Source: a virus (Duplodnaviria; Heunggongvirae; Uroviricota; Caudoviricetes). Taken from it: DNA of 29,313 nt. Shown here piece after piece: positions 187-9,566 of the stretch (position 1 is the stretch's first letter; every line of letters starts with the position of its first letter). The position numbers were made by a program, and so were the translations under genes. The stretch spans positions 1-29,313 of IMG/VR virus record IMGVR_UViG_3300045988_071311; one strand, 5' to 3'. Under the pieces are notes generated by a model. The model worked only from the letters and a program-made list of their open reading frames with translations, had not been told where the DNA came from and ran no database searches.

Positions 187-735
187 TTACCTTTGCGTGA
201 TTAACTCTTTAGCAAATATTGATAAACCGGGCTTACCTTCTTCAAGGTAACAGCACTTTTCAAATGCTGTGCTCCATTCACCATTGGCGGACATTAACTG
301 GTCTTCATTCAATATATTGCTGTGTTTGCGGAGTAAATTCATTGCCTGCTTTTTTGTAATGCTAAAATCATATTTATCTTGCGTCATATACTCCACCTTT
401 CGAGGTTGGGGAGTAATTGAAATTGGTAATACTGTGACTTTAACCCTGTCTGAAGGTGTTTGGTACAAAGTACGATATGCGGCGTAAATGGCTGCCTTGT
501 CTGATTCGTACTTAATATCTTTCGTTGAACTCCCTGATAAAGTGCGCGGTGAGATTTGGATGTGTAAAGGCTTTTCAGACAAAATTTTGAAAGATGGAAA
601 ATCCTTACCGTCTACGGTATAAGTTGGATAATCATTATAGTTTTCCATCAAGTCATTAATGTTTTTGAATTGTTCAGGTGCTGCAATTGCAGCAAATGAT
701 GACAAAATTAAAGCGCCTGTGACTAAAACTCTCAT
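187..735 (-). CDS. Secreted/periplasmic protein of unknown function (moron between cI and int)
   Basis: 182-aa ORF with ATG start and SD AGGAG 5 nt upstream. N-terminal signal peptide MRVLVTGALILSSFAAIAAP with no lipobox cysteine. Visibly AT-rich compared with flanking phage genes. Its TAA stop is 5 nt from the int GTG start. Confidence 0.7.
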   Translation of the reverse strand: MRVLVTGALILSSFAAIAAPEQFKNINDLMENYNDYPTYTVDGKDFPSFKILSEKPLHIQISPRTLSGSSTKDIKYESDKAAIYAAYRTLYQTPSDRVKVTVLPISITPQPRKVEYMTQDKYDFSITKKQAMNLLRKHSNILNEDQLMSANGEWSTAFEKCCYLEEGKPGLSIFAKELITQR

Positions 736-759: not shown

Positions 760-1374
760 TCAGTCCACGTTATCTATTTTGCTTGCCACTTTCCCTAAAA
801 CTTTTACATCAGAGGCCGCACATTCAAATGATGCTGGTCCGTTTTCGACACGAACTCGCCCGCCAGGCAGACGGTAAACCTGTCTGATGCTCGCAAAACC
901 ATCTATCTCAATCAGCCAGGTGCCGTCGTTGATCTCGCCTTTATATTCACTGACGAGATACGTCGTCGATTCAAATTTGACGAGAAACGGATCTGTGGTG
1001 TTTTGAGGTATTAGGCGTAGGTCATAACGAATCAAGGTTACGTTGTTTAAAATCCCATTTGTGATTTCATTTAATTGCAAAGTCAATCCGTGATCTTCAT
1101 TTGGCATGGCTTCTGGGGTGCCCTTACCAGTAGTTAGCCAAATCAAGGGTATACCTGTGTCCAGATGGCAGGCTATAAGCCAGTCATATGGAAAAGTGTC
1201 ACGCATCCAGCGGTTAGCCATTGTGCTTTGAGATACGCCGAGATGATCACATAGAGCTTGCCTTGTGCTAAATCCATAAGCCTGCAGAATGCGTGTTATG
1301 GCCTCTCTCCCCCCACTTTGAGATGGAAAATTGAATTTTGAAATTTCATTGAGGGTTTTTTTTGTGTTTGACAT
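760..1374 (-). CDS. cI: 186-type CI-like immunity repressor
   Basis: 204 aa, divergent from the early operon. N-terminal HTH-like segment (AYGFSTRQALCDHLGVSQSTMANRW) resembles my recollection of the phage 186 CI N-terminal domain. Length fits 186 CI (about 190 aa), not P2 C (99 aa). Confidence 0.7.
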   Translation of the reverse strand: MSNTKKTLNEISKFNFPSQSGGREAITRILQAYGFSTRQALCDHLGVSQSTMANRWMRDTFPYDWLIACHLDTGIPLIWLTTGKGTPEAMPNEDHGLTLQLNEITNGILNNVTLIRYDLRLIPQNTTDPFLVKFESTTYLVSEYKGEINDGTWLIEIDGFASIRQVYRLPGGRVRVENGPASFECAASDVKVLGKVASKIDNVD

Positions 1375-3296: not shown

Positions 3297-4150
3297 GCAC
3301 CATCCTGAAATGGGCGGGTAATAAAACTGCCATTATGTCCGAACTGAAAAAATACCTTCCTGCTGGCCCGCGACTGGTTGAACCTTTCGCGGGTTCCTGT
3401 GCAGTGATGATGGAGACGGATTATCCCAGCTATCTGATTGCGGATATTAATCCTGATTTAATCAACCTCTATAAAAAGATTGCCGCTGATTGTGAATCGT
3501 TTATATCTCGCGCCAGAGTTTTATTTGAGAACGCAAACAGGGAGATGGATTATTACAACATAAGGCAGGAGTTTAATTACTCAACTGAAATTACTGATTT
3601 CATGAAAGCGGTATATTTCCTGTATCTCAATCGCCACGGTTACCGTGGGTTATGTCGCTATAACAAGAGCGGGCATTTCAACATTCCCTACGGTAATTAT
3701 AAAAATCCGTATTTTCCTGAAAAAGAAATGCGTGCATTTGCAGTAAAAGCCCAGCGGGCAACGTTTATCTGCGCCAGCTTCGATGAAACGCTGGCGATGT
3801 TGCACGCGGGGGATGTTGTGTATTGCGATCCGCCTTATGACGGTACGTTTTCCGGCTATCACACTGATGGCTTCACTGAAGATGATCAGTATCACCTGGC
3901 ATCCGTTCTTGAACATCGATCATCTGAAGGTCATCCGGTCATTGTTTCTAACAGTGACACATCCCTGATCCGTTCGCTGTATCGCAATTTCACTCACCAC
4001 TACATCAAGGCAAAACGCAGCATCGGCGTGTCGGCTGGCGAGAGTAAATCTGCAACAGAAATCATTGCTGTTTCTGGGGCGCGCTGCTGGGTGGGATTTG
4101 ATCCTTCGCGTGGCGTGGATAGTTCTGCTGTGTACGAGGTGCGTGTATGA
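3293..4150 (+). CDS. dam: DNA adenine methyltransferase (Dam family, probably GATC-specific)
   Basis: 285 aa. N-terminus LKWAGNK...[11 protein letters not shown] and catalytic motif VVYCDPPY are colinear with E. coli Dam as I recall it (FLKWAGGK...LVEPFVGAGSV...VVYCDPPY). Confidence 0.9.
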
Positions 4151-6561
4151 GTCATGACGATATGAGCAACTCTAGCGGCTTTAACGAGGCCGCTGCATCA
4201 TTTTCATGGAACGGCCCGAAAAAGGCCATTAACCCTTATCTGGATCCGGCGGAAGTTGCGCCGGAGTCTGCACTTTCAAACCTGATCACTCTGTACGCTG
4301 CCGATAACGAACAGGAACAACTGCGCCGCGAGGCACTGAGTGAGCAGGTCTGGGAGCGTTATTTCTTTAATGAATCCCGTGATCCTGTCCAGCGCGAAAT
4401 GGAGCAGGATAAGCTCATTAGCCGGGCAAAGCTGGCGCATGAGCAGCAGCGTTTTAATCCAGACATGGTCATTCTGGCGGACGTAAACGCCCAGCCTTCC
4501 CATATCAGCAAGCCGCTGATGCAACGTATTGAATACTTCAGCAGCCTGGGCAGGCCAAAGGCTTATTCCCGCTATTTGCGTGAGACGATTAAGCCATGTC
4601 TGGAACGACTGGAGCATGTACGCGACAGTCAGCTATCCACTTCTTTTCGCTTTATGGCAAGCCATGAAGGGCTGGACGGCCTGCTGATCCTGCCTGAAAT
4701 GAGTCAGGATCAGGTGAAACGCCTGTCTACTCTTGTCGCTGCGCATATGAACATGTGTCTTGATGCCGCTTGTGGTGATTTGTACGCCACCGATGATGTT
4801 AAGCCAGAAGAAATCCGCAAGACATGGGAAAAGGTGGCAGCGGAAACCCTGCGTCTGGATGTCATCCCACCTGCGTTTGAGCAACTCCGCTGGAAAAGAA
4901 ACCGCCGTAAACCCGTGCCCTATGAACTCATTCCGGGTTCGCTGGCGCGTATGTTGTGCGCCGACTGGTGGTATCGGAAATTATGGAAGATGCGTTGCGA
5001 ATGGCGGGAAGAGCAGTTGCGCGCTGTCTGCCTGGTTAGCAAAAAAGCATCTCCTTATGTCAGCTATGAAGCCGTGATGCATAAACGTGAGCAGCGCCGT
5101 AAGTCGCTGGAGTTTTTCCGTTCTCATGAACTGGTGAACGAAGACGGCGACACGCTGGACATGGAGGATGTGGTAAACGCCAGCAGCAGCAACCCTGCGC
5201 ATCGCCGCAATGAGATGATGGCCTGTGTTAAAGGTCTGGAGCTTATCGCGGAAATGCGCGGTGACTGCGCCGTTTTCTACACCATCACCTGTCCGTCACG
5301 TTTCCATTCCACGCTAAATAACGGCAGGCCCAACCCAACCTGGACAAATGCGACGGTAAGACAAAGTAGTGATTATCTGGTCGGCATGTTTGCTGCATTT
5401 CGTAAGGCGATGCACAAAGCCGGATTGCGCTGGTATGGCGTGCGGGTGGCTGAGCCGCATCATGACGGTACAGTTCACTGGCACCTGTTGTGTTTTATGC
5501 GCAAAAAAGACCGCCGCGCCATCACTGCATTACTGCGTAAGTTTGCCATCCGTGAAGACCGCGAGGAGCTGGGCAATAACACTGGGCCGCGCTTTAAGTC
5601 TGAGTTGATTAACCCGCGCAAAGGTACGCCAACAAGCTACATCGCGAAATACATCAGTAAGAACATTGACGGGCGTGGTCTGGCTGGCGAGATCAGTAAG
5701 GAAACGGGTAAATCCTTGCGTGATAACGCTGAATACGTTAATGCCTGGGCGTCTCTGCATCGTGTACAGCAATTCCGCTTCTTTGGTATTCCGGGACGTC
5801 AGGCTTACCGTGAACTTCGCTTGCTGGCTGGTCAGGCGGCAAGGCAACAGGGTGACAAAAAAGCAGGTGCGCCGGTACTGGATAACCCGCGTCTTGATGC
5901 CATTCTGGCTGCTGCTGATGCTGGTTGTTTTGCCACCTACATCATGAAGCAGGGCGGCGTACTGGTTCCCCGTAAATATCACCTCATCAGAACCGCTTAT
6001 GAAATCAACGAAGAGCCGACCGCCTATGGCGATCACGGTATTCGTATTTATGGCATCTGGTCACCCATTGCAGAGGGCAAGATCTGCACTCATGCAGTGA
6101 AGTGGAAAATGGTTCGTAAAGCCGTTGACGTTCAGGAGGCGGCAGCCGACCAGGGCGCTTGCGCCCCTTGGACTCGTGGCAATAACTGTCCCCTTGCTGA
6201 AAATTTGAACCAACAGGAGAAAGATAAATCAGCAGATGGGGATACCAGAACTGATATTACCTGCATGGATGACAAGGAATTGCACGATTACCTGCATAGT
6301 ATGAGCAAAAAAGAGCGCCGGGAACTGGCAGCAAGGTTACGCCTGGTTAAACCGATACGGCGTAAAGACTACAAACAGCGAATTACAGACCATCAACGAC
6401 TGCAGCTCGTCTATGAGCTGAAGTCCAGAGGATTTGATGGCAGCGAGAAAGAGGTCGATTTACTGCTTCACGGCGGCAGTATTCCGTCAGGAGCAGGCCT
6501 GCGTATCTTCTATCGGAACCAGCGTTTGCAGGAAGATGATAAGTGGCGGGATCTGTATTAA
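4147..6561 (+). CDS. A: Replication initiation endonuclease A (rolling-circle, HUH superfamily)
   Basis: 804 aa. HUH motif GTVHWHLL and tyrosine motif YIAKYISKN present. Position after the early genes, as for P2 gpA. Start overlaps the dam stop (ATGA). Confidence 0.9.
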
Positions 6562-6629
6562 TTACGCGGGTTAACAATTCGTGCTCTTAATAATACCAGG
6601 TATATCAGGCTGATGATCGTAAAAAAACG

Positions 6630-6657
6630 TTTTACATCAGTAAGATTATTATATACT
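6630..6657 (+). promoter_or_regulatory. Candidate sigma70 promoter (TTTTAC-16 bp-TATACT) overlapping a LexA box
   Basis: -35-like ttttac at 6630..6635 and -10-like tatact at 6652..6657, directly upstream of the 6714 ORF. Confidence 0.45.
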
Positions 6658-6673
6658 GTAAATATAAACAGTG
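6654..6673. promoter_or_regulatory. LexA box (SOS operator)
   Basis: tactgtaaatataaacagtg fits the CTGT-N8-ACAG core and matches the consensus TACTGTATATATATACAGTA at about 17 of 20 positions; it overlaps the -10 element. Confidence 0.75.
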
Positions 6674-6713
6674 GTTATGTATACAGTATTGCTTTGGTGT
6701 CATAGGAGGAAAG

Positions 6714-6902
6714 ATGCAGGACTATTTTTTGGAGTCTTTGAAGCTCCAGCGCATTGATTTTTTTCTTAAGCTTGTAGCGGCTAGTGAGTGTAGTGATGAA
6801 GAGAAGGGGCTGGCTTTGCAGTGGGTTTCTGAATTGACTGATGAACTCATGGCAAAAATCAGAAGCCACGAATACAACCGCTCAATGGATGTCATCAGCT
6901 GA
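6714..6902 (+). CDS. Small SOS-regulated protein, candidate Tum-like antirepressor (by position only)
   Basis: 62-aa ORF with SD aggagg 4 nt upstream of the ATG, immediately downstream of the LexA box and promoter. Confidence 0.5.
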   Translation: MQDYFLESLKLQRIDFFLKLVAASECSDEEKGLALQWVSELTDELMAKIRSHEYNRSMDVIS

Positions 6903-6912
6903 GGTGACTTTT

Positions 6913-7146
6913 ATGCGCATTGAAATAATGATCGATAAAGAGCAGAAGATTAGCCAGTCTACCCTGGACACCCTTGAATCCGAGCTTTACCGCAATCTGC
7001 GCCCCCTGTATCCCAAAACGGTAATTCGCATTCGCAAAGGTAGCTCTAACGGTGTGGAACTAACCGGACTGCAACTGGATGAAGAAAGAAAACAAGTGAT
7101 GAAAATTATGCAGAAGGTGTGGGAGGACGACAGCTGGCTGCATTAA
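6913..7146 (+). CDS. DinI-like protein
   Basis: 77 aa from ATG 6913, with SD gaggtg upstream. MRIEIMIDK...LESELYRNLRPLYP...WEDDSWL aligns with E. coli DinI (MRIEVTIAK...LAGELSRRIQYAFPD...WESADDW). The ORF-track version starting at 6841 is probably an over-extension. Confidence 0.8.
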   Translation: MRIEIMIDKEQKISQSTLDTLESELYRNLRPLYPKTVIRIRKGSSNGVELTGLQLDEERKQVMKIMQKVWEDDSWLH

Positions 7147-7276
7147 TGAACGTTGCTGGCGCCAGGACTTGATTCTGACGCCAGCGAGGTTGAACTACGA
7201 GCAGGGCGAGGCGCTAGCCAATGGTTGGTGAGGCATTAATTAATCATAGATTGAGAATGGTTTCTAATTTTAGATA

Positions 7277-8008
7277 TTAACTCATGAGAGAGAAATCTAA
7301 AGAATATTTAACAATGGACTTTTCTGCTTTATACCATTTAACATGTGACCATTCTTTTCCTGAAAGTAAAGAACGTATCTCTTCTTTACTTTCTTCACTG
7401 GTTCTCAAACCAAAAGCTATAGAGTTTATTGCTTTGGGCTCAAACTTTAATGCACCAGAATCTAACTTTATAAGTCTCCGCTCACGTTCATATCTCCAAC
7501 CGGAATATTTAGTTCCCAAGATTGAGTGAATTATATCACCAGCAATATTATGTAAGTTATTTTCGTTAGGGTGGTTCTCAAAAAAGTTGAGTCTGTCAAT
7601 GATGCCTTGATAAGGGTAGTTGCTTTGATACGTAATGTCTATGGCATGTATTTTTGAGCCTTCATATCTTAATTCCTTCTCTTTAAACCCAATGCAGAAC
7701 CCTCTATGTTCATCAGCGTAGTGGGACCACATTAATTGGTTCTTACGTGCCCGGCTTAAAGCGCAAACACCATATGTGCTTATTGACTCTTTTAGAGCTT
7801 CCTCAAATTTCAATTTCAAATCCAACGGTAGTTCTTTACGGGCCCATACTGCGGCTAAAACATCAGGAAAGGAAGTTTCAGCTTCGAAGGGGTCATTAAA
7901 GTTATCTGCAGTAGCGAACCATAATTCACGATTGCGAAGAACACGCAGTCCATCGTCTTTGCAGTTTCGATATTTAAATAAAATTCCATTTTTTACCGTG
8001 GTGTTCAT
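7277..8008 (-). CDS. Uncharacterised 243-aa cytoplasmic protein in the A-to-Q accessory hotspot; candidate anti-phage defence protein (possibly DUF2971-like)
   Basis: Long ORF on the strand opposite to all neighbours, strongly AT-rich by eye. No signal peptide or TM segment. Motifs LWFATADNFNDPFE and MWSHYADEHRGFCIGF resemble what I recall of the DUF2971 family; family call is tentative. Possible extended -10 (TGnTATAAA) around 8075..8080 on the minus strand. Confidence 0.75.
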   Translation of the reverse strand: MNTTVKNGILFKYRNCKDDGLRVLRNRELWFATADNFNDPFEAETSFPDVLAAVWARKELPLDLKLKFEEALKESISTYGVCALSRARKNQLMWSHYADEHRGFCIGFKEKELRYEGSKIHAIDITYQSNYPYQGIIDRLNFFENHPNENNLHNIAGDIIHSILGTKYSGWRYERERRLIKLDSGALKFEPKAINSIAFGLRTSEESKEEIRSLLSGKEWSHVKWYKAEKSIVKYSLDFSLMS

Positions 8009-8341
8009 TTTTGATTTATCCCCTTTTCAAACTGAATGAACATATTTTCTCATGCATCGAGAACTGGCACGGCATTTATACACCAAATGTGCAGCAGTCG
8101 CATTATGCCCGCAACAACAATTCTGTTATAGCCAATTTAGCTACAGTCTATAAAGTACACACTACATTAGTAAACTAAAAAGCTAGGACGTTAGACGGTT
8201 TTTGTTTTGGGGAGCACTGCATGTCTATGCCGCATGAATCCGCATGATCGTTTGAGGATCGTTTTTGCTGAGGCCCGCCAGAACTGGCGGGCTTTTGCTT
8301 ATGTCATGCAGGTGCATGAAAATCACTGCATAAAGCGGGCA

Positions 8342-8360
8342 GGCGTGGCGGGGATACGAG
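8342..8360. other. cos: Candidate cos site (cohesive-end sequence)
   Basis: ggcgtggcggggatacgag matches the first 13 nt of the 19-nt cohesive end I recall for 186 (GGCGTGGCGGGGAAAGCAT) and P2 (GGCGAGGCGGGGAAAGCAC). Located between the accessory island and portal gene Q, as in P2. Confidence 0.55.
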
Positions 8361-8522
8361 CGCGCGCAACGGGGTAAAATGGCCAAAATCCGGCACAGCC
8401 TCTGGCCCGCTGGCGGCCTCATTTAGTGGAGAGGGGGGAAGATGTCAGGGCAAAAAGAAACGCCCCGCAGAATGCTGCTGAGGCGTTGTGAGAGTTGGTC
8501 GGTTATTGATGTTATGAGTATG

Positions 8523-9566
8523 TCAGCCTCGTTTGCCCTTAAGTCCTAAGTCATAAGCTTCAAAACGGATCACCTCTTCATCCAGCCAGTCATTCAGCTC
8601 CTGCAGTCGCTTTTGCAATGGCATCAGTTCATTGCGGACGAAGACACGGCTCGCTTTTTCCACATCACCAAAGCCGCCAGTATTGTTGGGAATGATGCCC
8701 ATCATTTGCGGCGGTACGCGGTGAGCCGCCATCATGTCATCGCGGCTGACGTTCTTGATGTTCAGAAATTCATCCTTCGCCGCGACTTCCGACAACGGGA
8801 TAATCTGAATGCCATCTTTTTTGCCGTTAGGCGAGTACATAAACAGGTTGCGAAAGTTGCCGGGTCCTTTAGCACTTTTCATTGCCTTGCGGATGTTGTT
8901 CACATCCTCCTGGTTCTGCGCGGCATCGGTCATATACATGATGAAGCCAGCATGGCTGCCGTTAATGTAATACTTACGACGGAACAACGTGGCGGACTCG
9001 TTGAGCAGAGCTGACGGAATGGCAGAAAGGTAACCCGGCAGACCATAAATCTCCTGGTTGATATCCGGCTCCATCAGGTGGAAGACGTTACCTTTTGTGA
9101 ACTGATACGGCTGTGTAGTCAGGCTGTATTGCACAAACCAGTATGTTTCAAGGTCAAGCCCGCGTCGGGTGTATTTTGCCAGTGCAGGCTCCAGCGAAAT
9201 AACTTCACCAAAGCGGTTCGTGCGTTTCTCCAGGTAGGCGTTACCAAAAACCAGATAGTCCTGCACAAAACGGGTAAATGCCTGCTGGCTGAGAAGGCGA
9301 TGTGGAATATAGGTACTGCTGATAATGTCACGCTTAACACTGATCGGGGAGCTGTGGTGCACGGCGGCGCGGAAGGTGCGCGCCAGTCCGTCAAAGCTGA
9401 CGGGCGGCTCATACCAGCGATCCATCTGTACGCATTCCACATAGTCCAGCAGTTCGCGGCGGTCCAGTACGGGGATGGGATCACCAAAGCTGAAAGCCTC
9501 CGCAACGGTTTTTTTAGTTTCTTCTGCAGTTACGGTTTCGCCTGGCGCGATATGTTCTTTCATCAA
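8523..9566 (-). CDS. Q: Portal protein
   Basis: 347 aa (P2 gpQ about 344 aa), first gene inward from cos, followed by and co-oriented with the large terminase. Confidence 0.85.
   Translation of the reverse strand: MMKEHIAPGETVTAEETKKTVAEAFSFGDPIPVLDRRELLDYVECVQMDRWYEPPVSFDGLARTFRAAVHHSSPISVKRDIISSTYIPHRLLSQQAFTRFVQDYLVFGNAYLEKRTNRFGEVISLEPALAKYTRRGLDLETYWFVQYSLTTQPYQFTKGNVFHLMEPDINQEIYGLPGYLSAIPSALLNESATLFRRKYYINGSHAGFIMYMTDAAQNQEDVNNIRKAMKSAKGPGNFRNLFMYSPNGKKDGIQIIPLSEVAAKDEFLNIKNVSRDDMMAAHRVPPQMMGIIPNNTGGFGDVEKASRVFVRNELMPLQKRLQELNDWLDEEVIRFEAYDLGLKGKRG

Follow-up and report, generated by a model that had tools for sequence, protein, structure and literature searches.

In phage 186, the SOS operon lies after gene A and is transcribed from p95, a promoter whose -10 hexamer (TACTGT) sits inside the LexA box. 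The Tum protein of this operon is encoded by one fused frame of 146 aa under a single SOS box. The frame contains nested in-frame starts, the last of which (a GTG) yields a DinI-like product of ~76 aa that is annotated as modulating SOS induction, and the operon then continues into orf97. Tum reportedly binds the CI repressor and blocks its binding to DNA, a result attributed to Shearwin et al. 1998. In PSP3 (NC_005340), tum is split in two, again after gene A and with a LexA box at the -10. The upstream gene, tumA, is annotated as 'similar to 5' end 186 tum; UV induction of prophage' and the downstream gene, tumB, as 'similar to dinI and 3' end of 186 tum'. The two PSP3 genes share a reading frame with a TAG between them, and their single SOS box carries 1 mismatch. 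The Fels-2 record likewise gives its DinI-like gene as similar to PSP3 TumB, and the primary source for the split of tum in Fels-2 is said to be Bunny et al. 2002.

A later publication describes tum as split in two in both Fels-2 and PSP3, citing the 2002 work and a personal communication, and relays second-hand, also as a personal communication, that antirepressor activity in PSP3 resides in the upstream gene (Lemire et al. 2011, PMC3121763). The same study concerns the dinI-gfoA/gftA operons of Gifsy-1/-2, which, as in the locus analysed here, combine a LexA-controlled DinI homologue with a small antirepressor that acts on a non-cleavable repressor (PMC3121763). The Gifsy antirepressors act across prophages (Lemire et al. 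2011, PMC3121763). However, the Gifsy operons belong to lambdoid phages, their gene order is reversed and their antirepressors and repressors are unrelated to those described below. Experimental evidence comes from DuoHS, a prophage of E. coli HS, in which a 62-aa gene (ECHS_RS04495) lies upstream of a DinI-like gene (ECHS_RS04500). An in-frame deletion of ECHS_RS04495 ('tum') abolished both MMC-induced lysis and virion foci, and lexA(Ind-) likewise abolished both (Phollow, Nat Microbiol 2025, PMC12055606).

Here, we analysed a stretch of 29,313 nucleotides of viral DNA (Caudoviricetes; IMG/VR record IMGVR_UViG_3300045988_071311), hereafter the window, in which a two-gene cassette had been proposed from the sequence alone to be an SOS-induction module. 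The cassette is very probably the tumA-tumB SOS-induction operon of a Fels-2/186-like (Peduoviridae) prophage. This operon is already known, through the PSP3 annotation, the published split in Fels-2 and PSP3 and the DuoHS deletion phenotype; that the split had been published was missed by the original prediction.

Identity and prophage context of the cassette

The cassette lies directly downstream of the replication gene A (gpA, 4147-6561; PF05840, E = 1.2e-127) in a phage with a 186-type CI/Apl/CII region, an arrangement also found in 186, PSP3 and Fels-2. The cI gene (760-1374, minus strand; PF07022 and PF16452) encodes a 186-type immunity repressor that matched the crystal structure of 186 CI (2fjr) at E = 2e-29, and TumA, given its homology to 186 Tum, is presumed to act on this repressor. 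An Apl-sized (Apl-like) ORF is located at 1475-1711 and CII at 1746-2255 (PF06892). The original prediction of a 186-like SOS module placed after the replication gene was supported by this context, by the homology of both ORFs to Tum and by the need for an identical small protein in the induction of DuoHS.

The cassette was found to be nearly identical to that of DuoHS, with 62/62 identical residues between the window TumA and ECHS_RS04495 and 76/77 between TumB and ECHS_RS04500. The -35 hexamer, both SOS boxes (described below) and the position after gene A were also the same in DuoHS, whereas the cargo genes further downstream differed from those of the window. The Fels-2 counterparts (STM2728/STM2726.1) were 97% (TumA) and 99% (TumB) identical to the window proteins, and those of SopEPhi (orf10/orf11) 90% and 87%. 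Both of these phages (Felsduovirus) carry the same double SOS box as the window, but their CI types differ from the window CI.

The first gene, tumA (6714-6902, plus strand), encodes a 62-aa protein and is preceded by the Shine-Dalgarno sequence AGGAGG (6704-6709, plus strand), which is kept in the relatives. TumA was assigned as a homologue of the N-terminal half of 186 Tum, and its putative role as an antirepressor follows from this homology. Pairwise BLASTP of the window TumA against 186 Tum and against PSP3 TumA gave no match, so the homology between TumA and Tum depends on profiles. The window TumA matched phrog_698 at E = 5.9e-38 and further matched phrog_8554, which corresponds to a Yersinia phage protein annotated 'tum', and phrog_1993, which corresponds to PSP3 TumA. 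Residues 1-70 of 186 Tum also matched phrog_698 (E = 5.9e-6). In addition, a TumA family profile built from 28 sequences, representing diverse members retrieved by an exhaustive phmmer search, aligned with Tum residues 3-44 using hhalign (94.9%, E = 4.5e-8). The same profile gave a weak match to PSP3 TumA (8.6%, E = 0.004). Thus, with PSP3 TumA in PHROG 1993 and the window TumA in PHROG 698, the two are connected at the profile level only, via 186 and the PHROG cross-matches.

The phmmer search, which covered 1.84 billion representatives, returned only 67 small stand-alone TumA clusters (50% identity) and did not reach the fused Tum proteins; the TumA family consisted almost wholly of stand-alone proteins of 50-100 aa. 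AlphaFold2 modelled TumA confidently (pLDDT 88) as a helical hairpin, with helices at residues 2-23 and 28-61. Searches of TumA against Pfam, NCBIfam, PADLOC and PDB sequences gave no match, and phrog_698 is listed as 'unknown function'. Among the cassette-bearing E. coli genomes, RefSeq labels TumA 'hypothetical protein' in every annotated row listed, and one source labels it 'levan regulatory protein'.

The second gene, tumB (6913-7146, plus strand), encodes a 77-aa DinI-family protein homologous to the C-terminal half of 186 Tum. Residues 14-76 matched the complete PF06183 profile (positions 1-63 of 63) at E = 3.6e-22, scoring 78.9 bits against a cut-off of 24.2. TumB was 40% identical to residues 71-145 of 186 Tum and matched the E. 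coli DinI structure 1ghh at E = 1e-5 over residues 1-75. Its C-terminus (KVWEDDSWLH) resembles the acidic tail of DinI. The score against the NCBIfam DinI equivalog (40.4 bits) fell under the 111-bit cut-off, indicating that TumB is a member of the family and not the chromosomal dinI. Membership of the DinI family, together with the 186 annotation, suggests that TumB may bind RecA filaments and modulate their co-protease activity. The original prediction had recognised the 62-aa ORF and the DinI-like ORF and had named alignment with 186 Tum and with DinI-family HMMs as the way to check them; for both proteins the outcome agreed with its proposal.

Two genes and their junction

The original prediction left two alternatives, a split or frameshifted tum homologue and a true two-gene operon. 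It had also pointed out that the combined length of the two products is close to that of 186 Tum, which our data reproduced (139 aa versus 146 aa). In line with the first alternative, the cassette could be a single tum gene that an error in sequencing, or an inactivating frameshift of recent date, has split, which would leave a pseudogene in a non-inducible prophage. This reading gains from the similar lengths, from the different frames of the two ORFs and from both frames being open over 6841-6902, an overlap that the original prediction had seen.

However, the same two-gene layout, with a base-identical junction, was present in DuoHS, Fels-2, 813R9, KP12 and ST15phi14.1. The cassette was detected in 1125/5426 complete E. 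coli genomes, with two genes in all annotated rows listed, and it also occurred in phages of Salmonella, Klebsiella and Yersinia. A separate ribosome-binding site precedes each cistron, and the 62-aa family exists as stand-alone proteins across the 67 clusters mentioned above. Both genes were under purifying selection relative to their homologues at dS ~1, with a dN/dS of 0.07-0.09 for tumA, its tail included, and ~0.08 for tumB. Finally, the gene for an identical TumA is functional in DuoHS. Against this evidence, a broken gene is very improbable.

A second way to join the two frames would be a programmed +1 frameshift, for example at GCA-AAA-A (6852-6858), which would fuse TumA and TumB into a Tum-like antirepressor. 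Consistent with this, no stop interrupts the tumB frame as far upstream as 6841, and the A5 run in the overlap is kept in DuoHS and Fels-2. The relatives, however, differed in how the two genes are registered. Relative to tumA, the tumB frame was offset by 1 in the window, Fels-2, DuoHS, 813R9, KP12 and ST15phi14.1, by 2 in SopEPhi and ST437phi4.1 and by 0 in MLG42 and PSP3. This variation rules out a sequencing indel and a conserved programmed frameshift alike as explanations of the layout, and, with junction sequences that also differ, a common recoding signal is impossible. Moreover, 186 too makes its DinI-like half separately, from the internal GTG. The open frame itself is unremarkable, as the 24 stop-free codons upstream of the ATG at 6913 would be expected by chance about 1 time in 3. 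Recoding is thus just as hard to credit as a broken gene. Of the original alternatives, the two-gene operon stood, with each gene homologous to one half of Tum; a frameshift or homopolymer indel did not, given the frame offsets, the dN/dS values and the occurrence in 1125 genomes.

The real start of tumB is plausibly the ATG at 6913, which lies behind the Shine-Dalgarno sequence GAGGTGA (6901-6907, plus strand) and gives the 77-aa protein; the relatives carry their own SD-like purine runs at this position. A 101-aa form starting from the ATG at 6841 was rejected as merely the mechanical longest ORF. A terminator-like scan identified a stem-loop (GTCATC-N6-GGTGAC; 6891-6908, plus strand; -9.4 kcal/mol) followed by UUUUAU. 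Both the stop codon of tumA and the ribosome-binding site of tumB lie within this stem-loop, which was identical across the Fels-2 clade. It may couple tumB translation to that of tumA, or it may serve as a weak attenuator. Translational coupling, as suggested by this junction hairpin, could make the tum deletion in DuoHS partly polar on tumB.

Downstream of tumB, the terminator scan found no canonical terminator. A strong hairpin without a U-tract was located 3' of tumB at 7153-7187 (plus strand; fold of 7140-7250, -38.3 kcal/mol, z = -2.6), and it may end or stabilise the transcript; it lies at the edge of a variable cargo region. Homology to some Klebsiella relatives ends at ~7147, and an Rfam scan of 6400-8600 gave no credible match. 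In the window, the slot for variable cargo that separates tumB from the portal gene holds a gene for a 243-aa DUF2971 protein (7277-8008, minus strand), which matched the PADLOC defence candidate PDC-S31 at E = 1.5e-47. This gene was considered as a continuation of the SOS operon and rejected: it lies on the opposite strand, and its product is unrelated to 186 orf97 and Fels-2 STM2726 despite their equal length, these two being unrelated to each other as well. Unlike 186, the window has no counterpart of orf97.

A double SOS box at the tumA promoter

The promoter upstream of tumA was assigned by comparison with the annotated p95 of 186, of which it is the equivalent, and by conservation. It comprises a -35 hexamer TTTACA (6631-6636, plus strand), a 17-nt spacer and a -10 hexamer TACTGT (6654-6659, plus strand), compared to TTCACA, 18 nt and TACTGT in p95. 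In the diverged relatives SopEPhi, MLG42 and ST437phi4.1 (ST437-OXA245phi4.1), the spacer sequence has wholly changed, whereas its 17-nt length and both hexamers are retained. This pattern of conservation gives good support to the call of a promoter, as judged from sequence comparison. A generic sigma-70 consensus scan made no call at the tumA promoter, because TACTGT is a poor match to the -10.

The -10 hexamer is also the left arm of a LexA (SOS) box, box 1 (TACTGTAAATATAAACAGTG; 6654-6673, no strand assigned). The original prediction of a LexA box overlapping the -10 of this promoter proved correct. Box 1 is the only site in the 29.3-kb window with no more than 3 mismatches to the 20-nt LexA consensus, and a comparable site occurred in 0/100 dinucleotide shuffles. 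Its 3 mismatches all fall outside CTG/CAG, leaving CTGT-N8-ACAG intact. Box 1 was invariant in DuoHS and Fels-2, and its CTGT-N8-ACAG was retained in SopEPhi, MLG42 and ST437phi4.1.

A second, degenerate LexA box, box 2 (CAGTGGTTATGTATACAGTA; 6669-6688, no strand assigned), overlaps box 1 by 5 nt and was missed by the original prediction. It has 5 mismatches to the consensus, including GTG for CTG. Nevertheless, box 2 was found at a fixed spacing in all Fels-2-type relatives compared, while it was absent from 186, PSP3 and the Yersinia phage Yen0616. The promoter core was identical in the window, DuoHS and Fels-2 over its whole span from the -35 to the end of box 2.

Two overlapping boxes with the core CTGT-N8-(A/C)CAGTGGTTAT-N4-TACAG are also the layout of colicin operators (colicin N, E1-like). 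An 82-nt query of the Fels-2 promoter matched 1124 plasmid records, mostly of small mobilizable plasmids, over ~47 nt at 81-85% identity. In the 2 plasmid records examined, the match was positioned ~40 nt upstream of a colicin gene, encoding colicin N in one and a colicin E1-like pore-former in the other. The 35-nt core (ACTGTA...CAGTGGTTAT...TACAGTAT) was identical at 31/35 positions to the colicin E1-like operator and could be aligned with the colicin N operator. The colicin operators differ from that of the window in that they drive a toxin rather than a prophage antirepressor, and the -35 region and 5' leader are unrelated. On this basis, boxes 1 and 2 form a colicin-type double overlapping SOS operator, both halves of which would be occupied by LexA.

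At the colicin double boxes, two LexA dimers are bound cooperatively, resulting in very tight repression, late induction and few cells expressing (PMC2994835). By analogy, LexA would bind the tumA operator cooperatively as two dimers, resulting in tight repression and late induction. We found no description of a double SOS operator at tum in the searchable literature, which does not cover Bunny et al. 2002. This operator is one of two modest, testable additions of the present analysis, the other being the relationship between TumA type and the N-terminal domain of CI.

TumA, the CI repressor and prophage induction

Across nine phages, TumA was 82-100% identical, whereas their CIs fell into six types with 37-62% mutual identity. 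The CI N-terminal DNA-binding domains of the same nine-phage group were 63-100% identical (median 72%), while the median identity of the C-terminal domains was 34.5%. The CI N-terminal domains of 186, PSP3 and Yen0616 were only 38-49% identical to those of the group, and these phages pair them with divergent TumA/Tum N-halves. In comparison, the C-terminal domain of the window CI was ~30% identical to those of 186, PSP3 and Yen0616, which is the same as within the group. The type of TumA therefore appears to track the type of the CI N-terminal domain, a correlation across a dozen genomes that would fit TumA contacting that domain.

Collectively, a route from DNA damage to prophage induction can be proposed. 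In an undamaged lysogen, LexA would sit on the double SOS operator over the -10 and the transcription start, keeping the promoter shut. Upon DNA damage, RecA would become active, LexA would cleave itself and tumA-tumB would be transcribed. TumA would then bind the prophage CI, most likely at the conserved N-terminal DNA-binding domain; 186 Tum serves as the model for direct binding, and the correlation with the CI N-terminal domain points to the site. With CI off its operators, the lytic promoter would fire and the prophage would be induced. TumB, translated from its own ribosome-binding site, would modulate the RecA filament and so tune the SOS signal, rather than act as the trigger. Of the layers of this scheme, the sequence anatomy, homology, conservation and selection are established here. 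The literature adds, for an identical TumA behind an identical promoter core, that the gene and a cleavable LexA are both needed for MMC induction. The window CI and the DuoHS CI are 42% identical overall, with values of 66% for the N-terminal and 31% for the C-terminal domain, so the action of TumA on the window CI is extrapolated.

Alternatively, TumA might belong to another class of small SOS-induced proteins, for instance toxins, inhibitors of division or modulators of RecA or LexA; its effect on induction would then be indirect and would not involve binding of CI. A conserved host target would also suit a TumA that is nearly invariant while CI varies widely, and we found no published data on direct CI binding by a Fels-2-type TumA. 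The Phollow legend, for its part, names only 'pro-lysogenic regulators' as being inhibited by the tum product (PMC12055606). In the same study, however, the host SOS reporter was still induced in the DuoHS tum deletion strain (PMC12055606), which places the action of TumA downstream of LexA. Furthermore, the profile homology of TumA covers a portion of 186 Tum that the truncated DinI-like products lack, and TumA type follows the type of the CI N-terminal domain. An indirect role is thus unlikely, although less remote than either frameshift reading, and we retain TumA as a putative CI antirepressor.

The cassette is an ordinary SOS-induction operon that had been characterised before, in a prophage family that is very common, and the value of identifying it is corrective. 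It settles an annotation gap and reveals no new system: the antirepressor is still 'hypothetical' almost everywhere. Recognition of TumA marks P2-like prophages that bear the cassette as SOS-inducible, and a call of SOS-inducibility matters for predicting the mobilisation of prophages by genotoxic antibiotics.

Both the double SOS box and the tracking of the CI N-terminal domain by TumA type also yield simple hypotheses, open to testing, on the induction threshold and on cross-induction. Taken together, they raise the tentative possibility, which we hold at somewhat less than even, that prophages of the Fels-2 type combine a colicin-style double operator, with very tight, late and bimodal firing, with a near-invariant TumA that recognises the N-terminal domain of many heteroimmune CIs. 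If TumA contacts this domain, cross-induction is predicted among heteroimmune Fels-2-like prophages. Should the combination be true, a single TumA could trigger several heteroimmune P2-like prophages, within one cell or across a population, and the induction threshold of this common prophage family would be set as in colicins, and not as in 186.

Operator and junctions of the tumA–tumB operon

The operator of tumA, which encodes the predicted antirepressor, comprises two overlapping predicted LexA boxes, box 1 (6654–6673) and the degenerate box 2 (6669–6688). Judged from its sequence, this region (6654–6688) is a double overlapping SOS box of the colicin type, and its core matched the operator preceding a colicin E1-like gene at 31/35 positions. 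In contrast, 186, PSP3 and a Yersinia relative each carry a single SOS box. In Klebsiella phage ST15-OXA48phi14.1, the right arm of box 1 (~7255–7275 in that locus) reads ACAT, compared to ACAG in other relatives, a substitution that could weaken LexA repression in this phage.

Both the tumA stop codon and the Shine-Dalgarno sequence of tumB, the DinI-family gene, are buried in a predicted stem-loop (GTCATC-N6-GGTGAC, 6891–6908) followed by UUUUAU. This structure, which was identical throughout the Fels-2 clade whilst junctions differed in other clades, may couple tumB translation to that of tumA, or may serve as a weak attenuator. No canonical terminator closing the tumA–tumB operon was found; a strong GC-rich hairpin lacking a U-tract (7153–7187) lies immediately 3' of tumB.

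Variant cassettes and database naming

Escherichia phage ESSI2_ev040 carries a solitary TumA-like gene (8453–8713, 49% identical) without a DinI-like partner, so some lineages can do without the DinI half. There, a small convergent regulator follows the TumA-like gene. In Escherichia phage 500465-1, the cassette copy (4381–5013) has a tumA dN/dS of ~0.9 and an IS21-family insertion nearby; this record is probably a decaying prophage or a poor assembly. The 62-aa TumA protein is labelled hypothetical in RefSeq and 'levan regulatory protein' in some database entries (e.g. P0021, H37), and the latter label is misleading and has propagated.

Genes neighbouring the cassette and cI

A variable cargo slot lies between tumB and the portal gene (8523–9566, minus strand). 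In the window, this slot holds a gene for a 243-aa DUF2971 protein (7277–8008, minus strand) matching phrog_1762 and PDC-S31 (E = 1.5e-47), a candidate defence family in PADLOC. In relatives, the slot is occupied by TIR-domain, Hypoth_Ymh or other genes. Adjoining cI (760–1374), the immunity repressor gene, a 182-aa ORF (187–735, minus strand) with a signal-peptide-like N-terminus had neither a Pfam nor a PADLOC match and is probably a moron expressed in lysogeny.

Conservation of TumA and its presumed target

Identity of TumA (6714–6902 in the window) among nine compared phages was 82–100%, compared to only 37–62% for their CI repressors. Conservation of CI was confined to the N-terminal domain (median identity 72%, versus 34.5% for the C-terminal domain). 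The near-constancy of TumA, together with conservation of this CI domain only, points to the N-terminal domain as the likely target of TumA, and cross-induction of heteroimmune prophages by TumA is conceivable from these comparisons.
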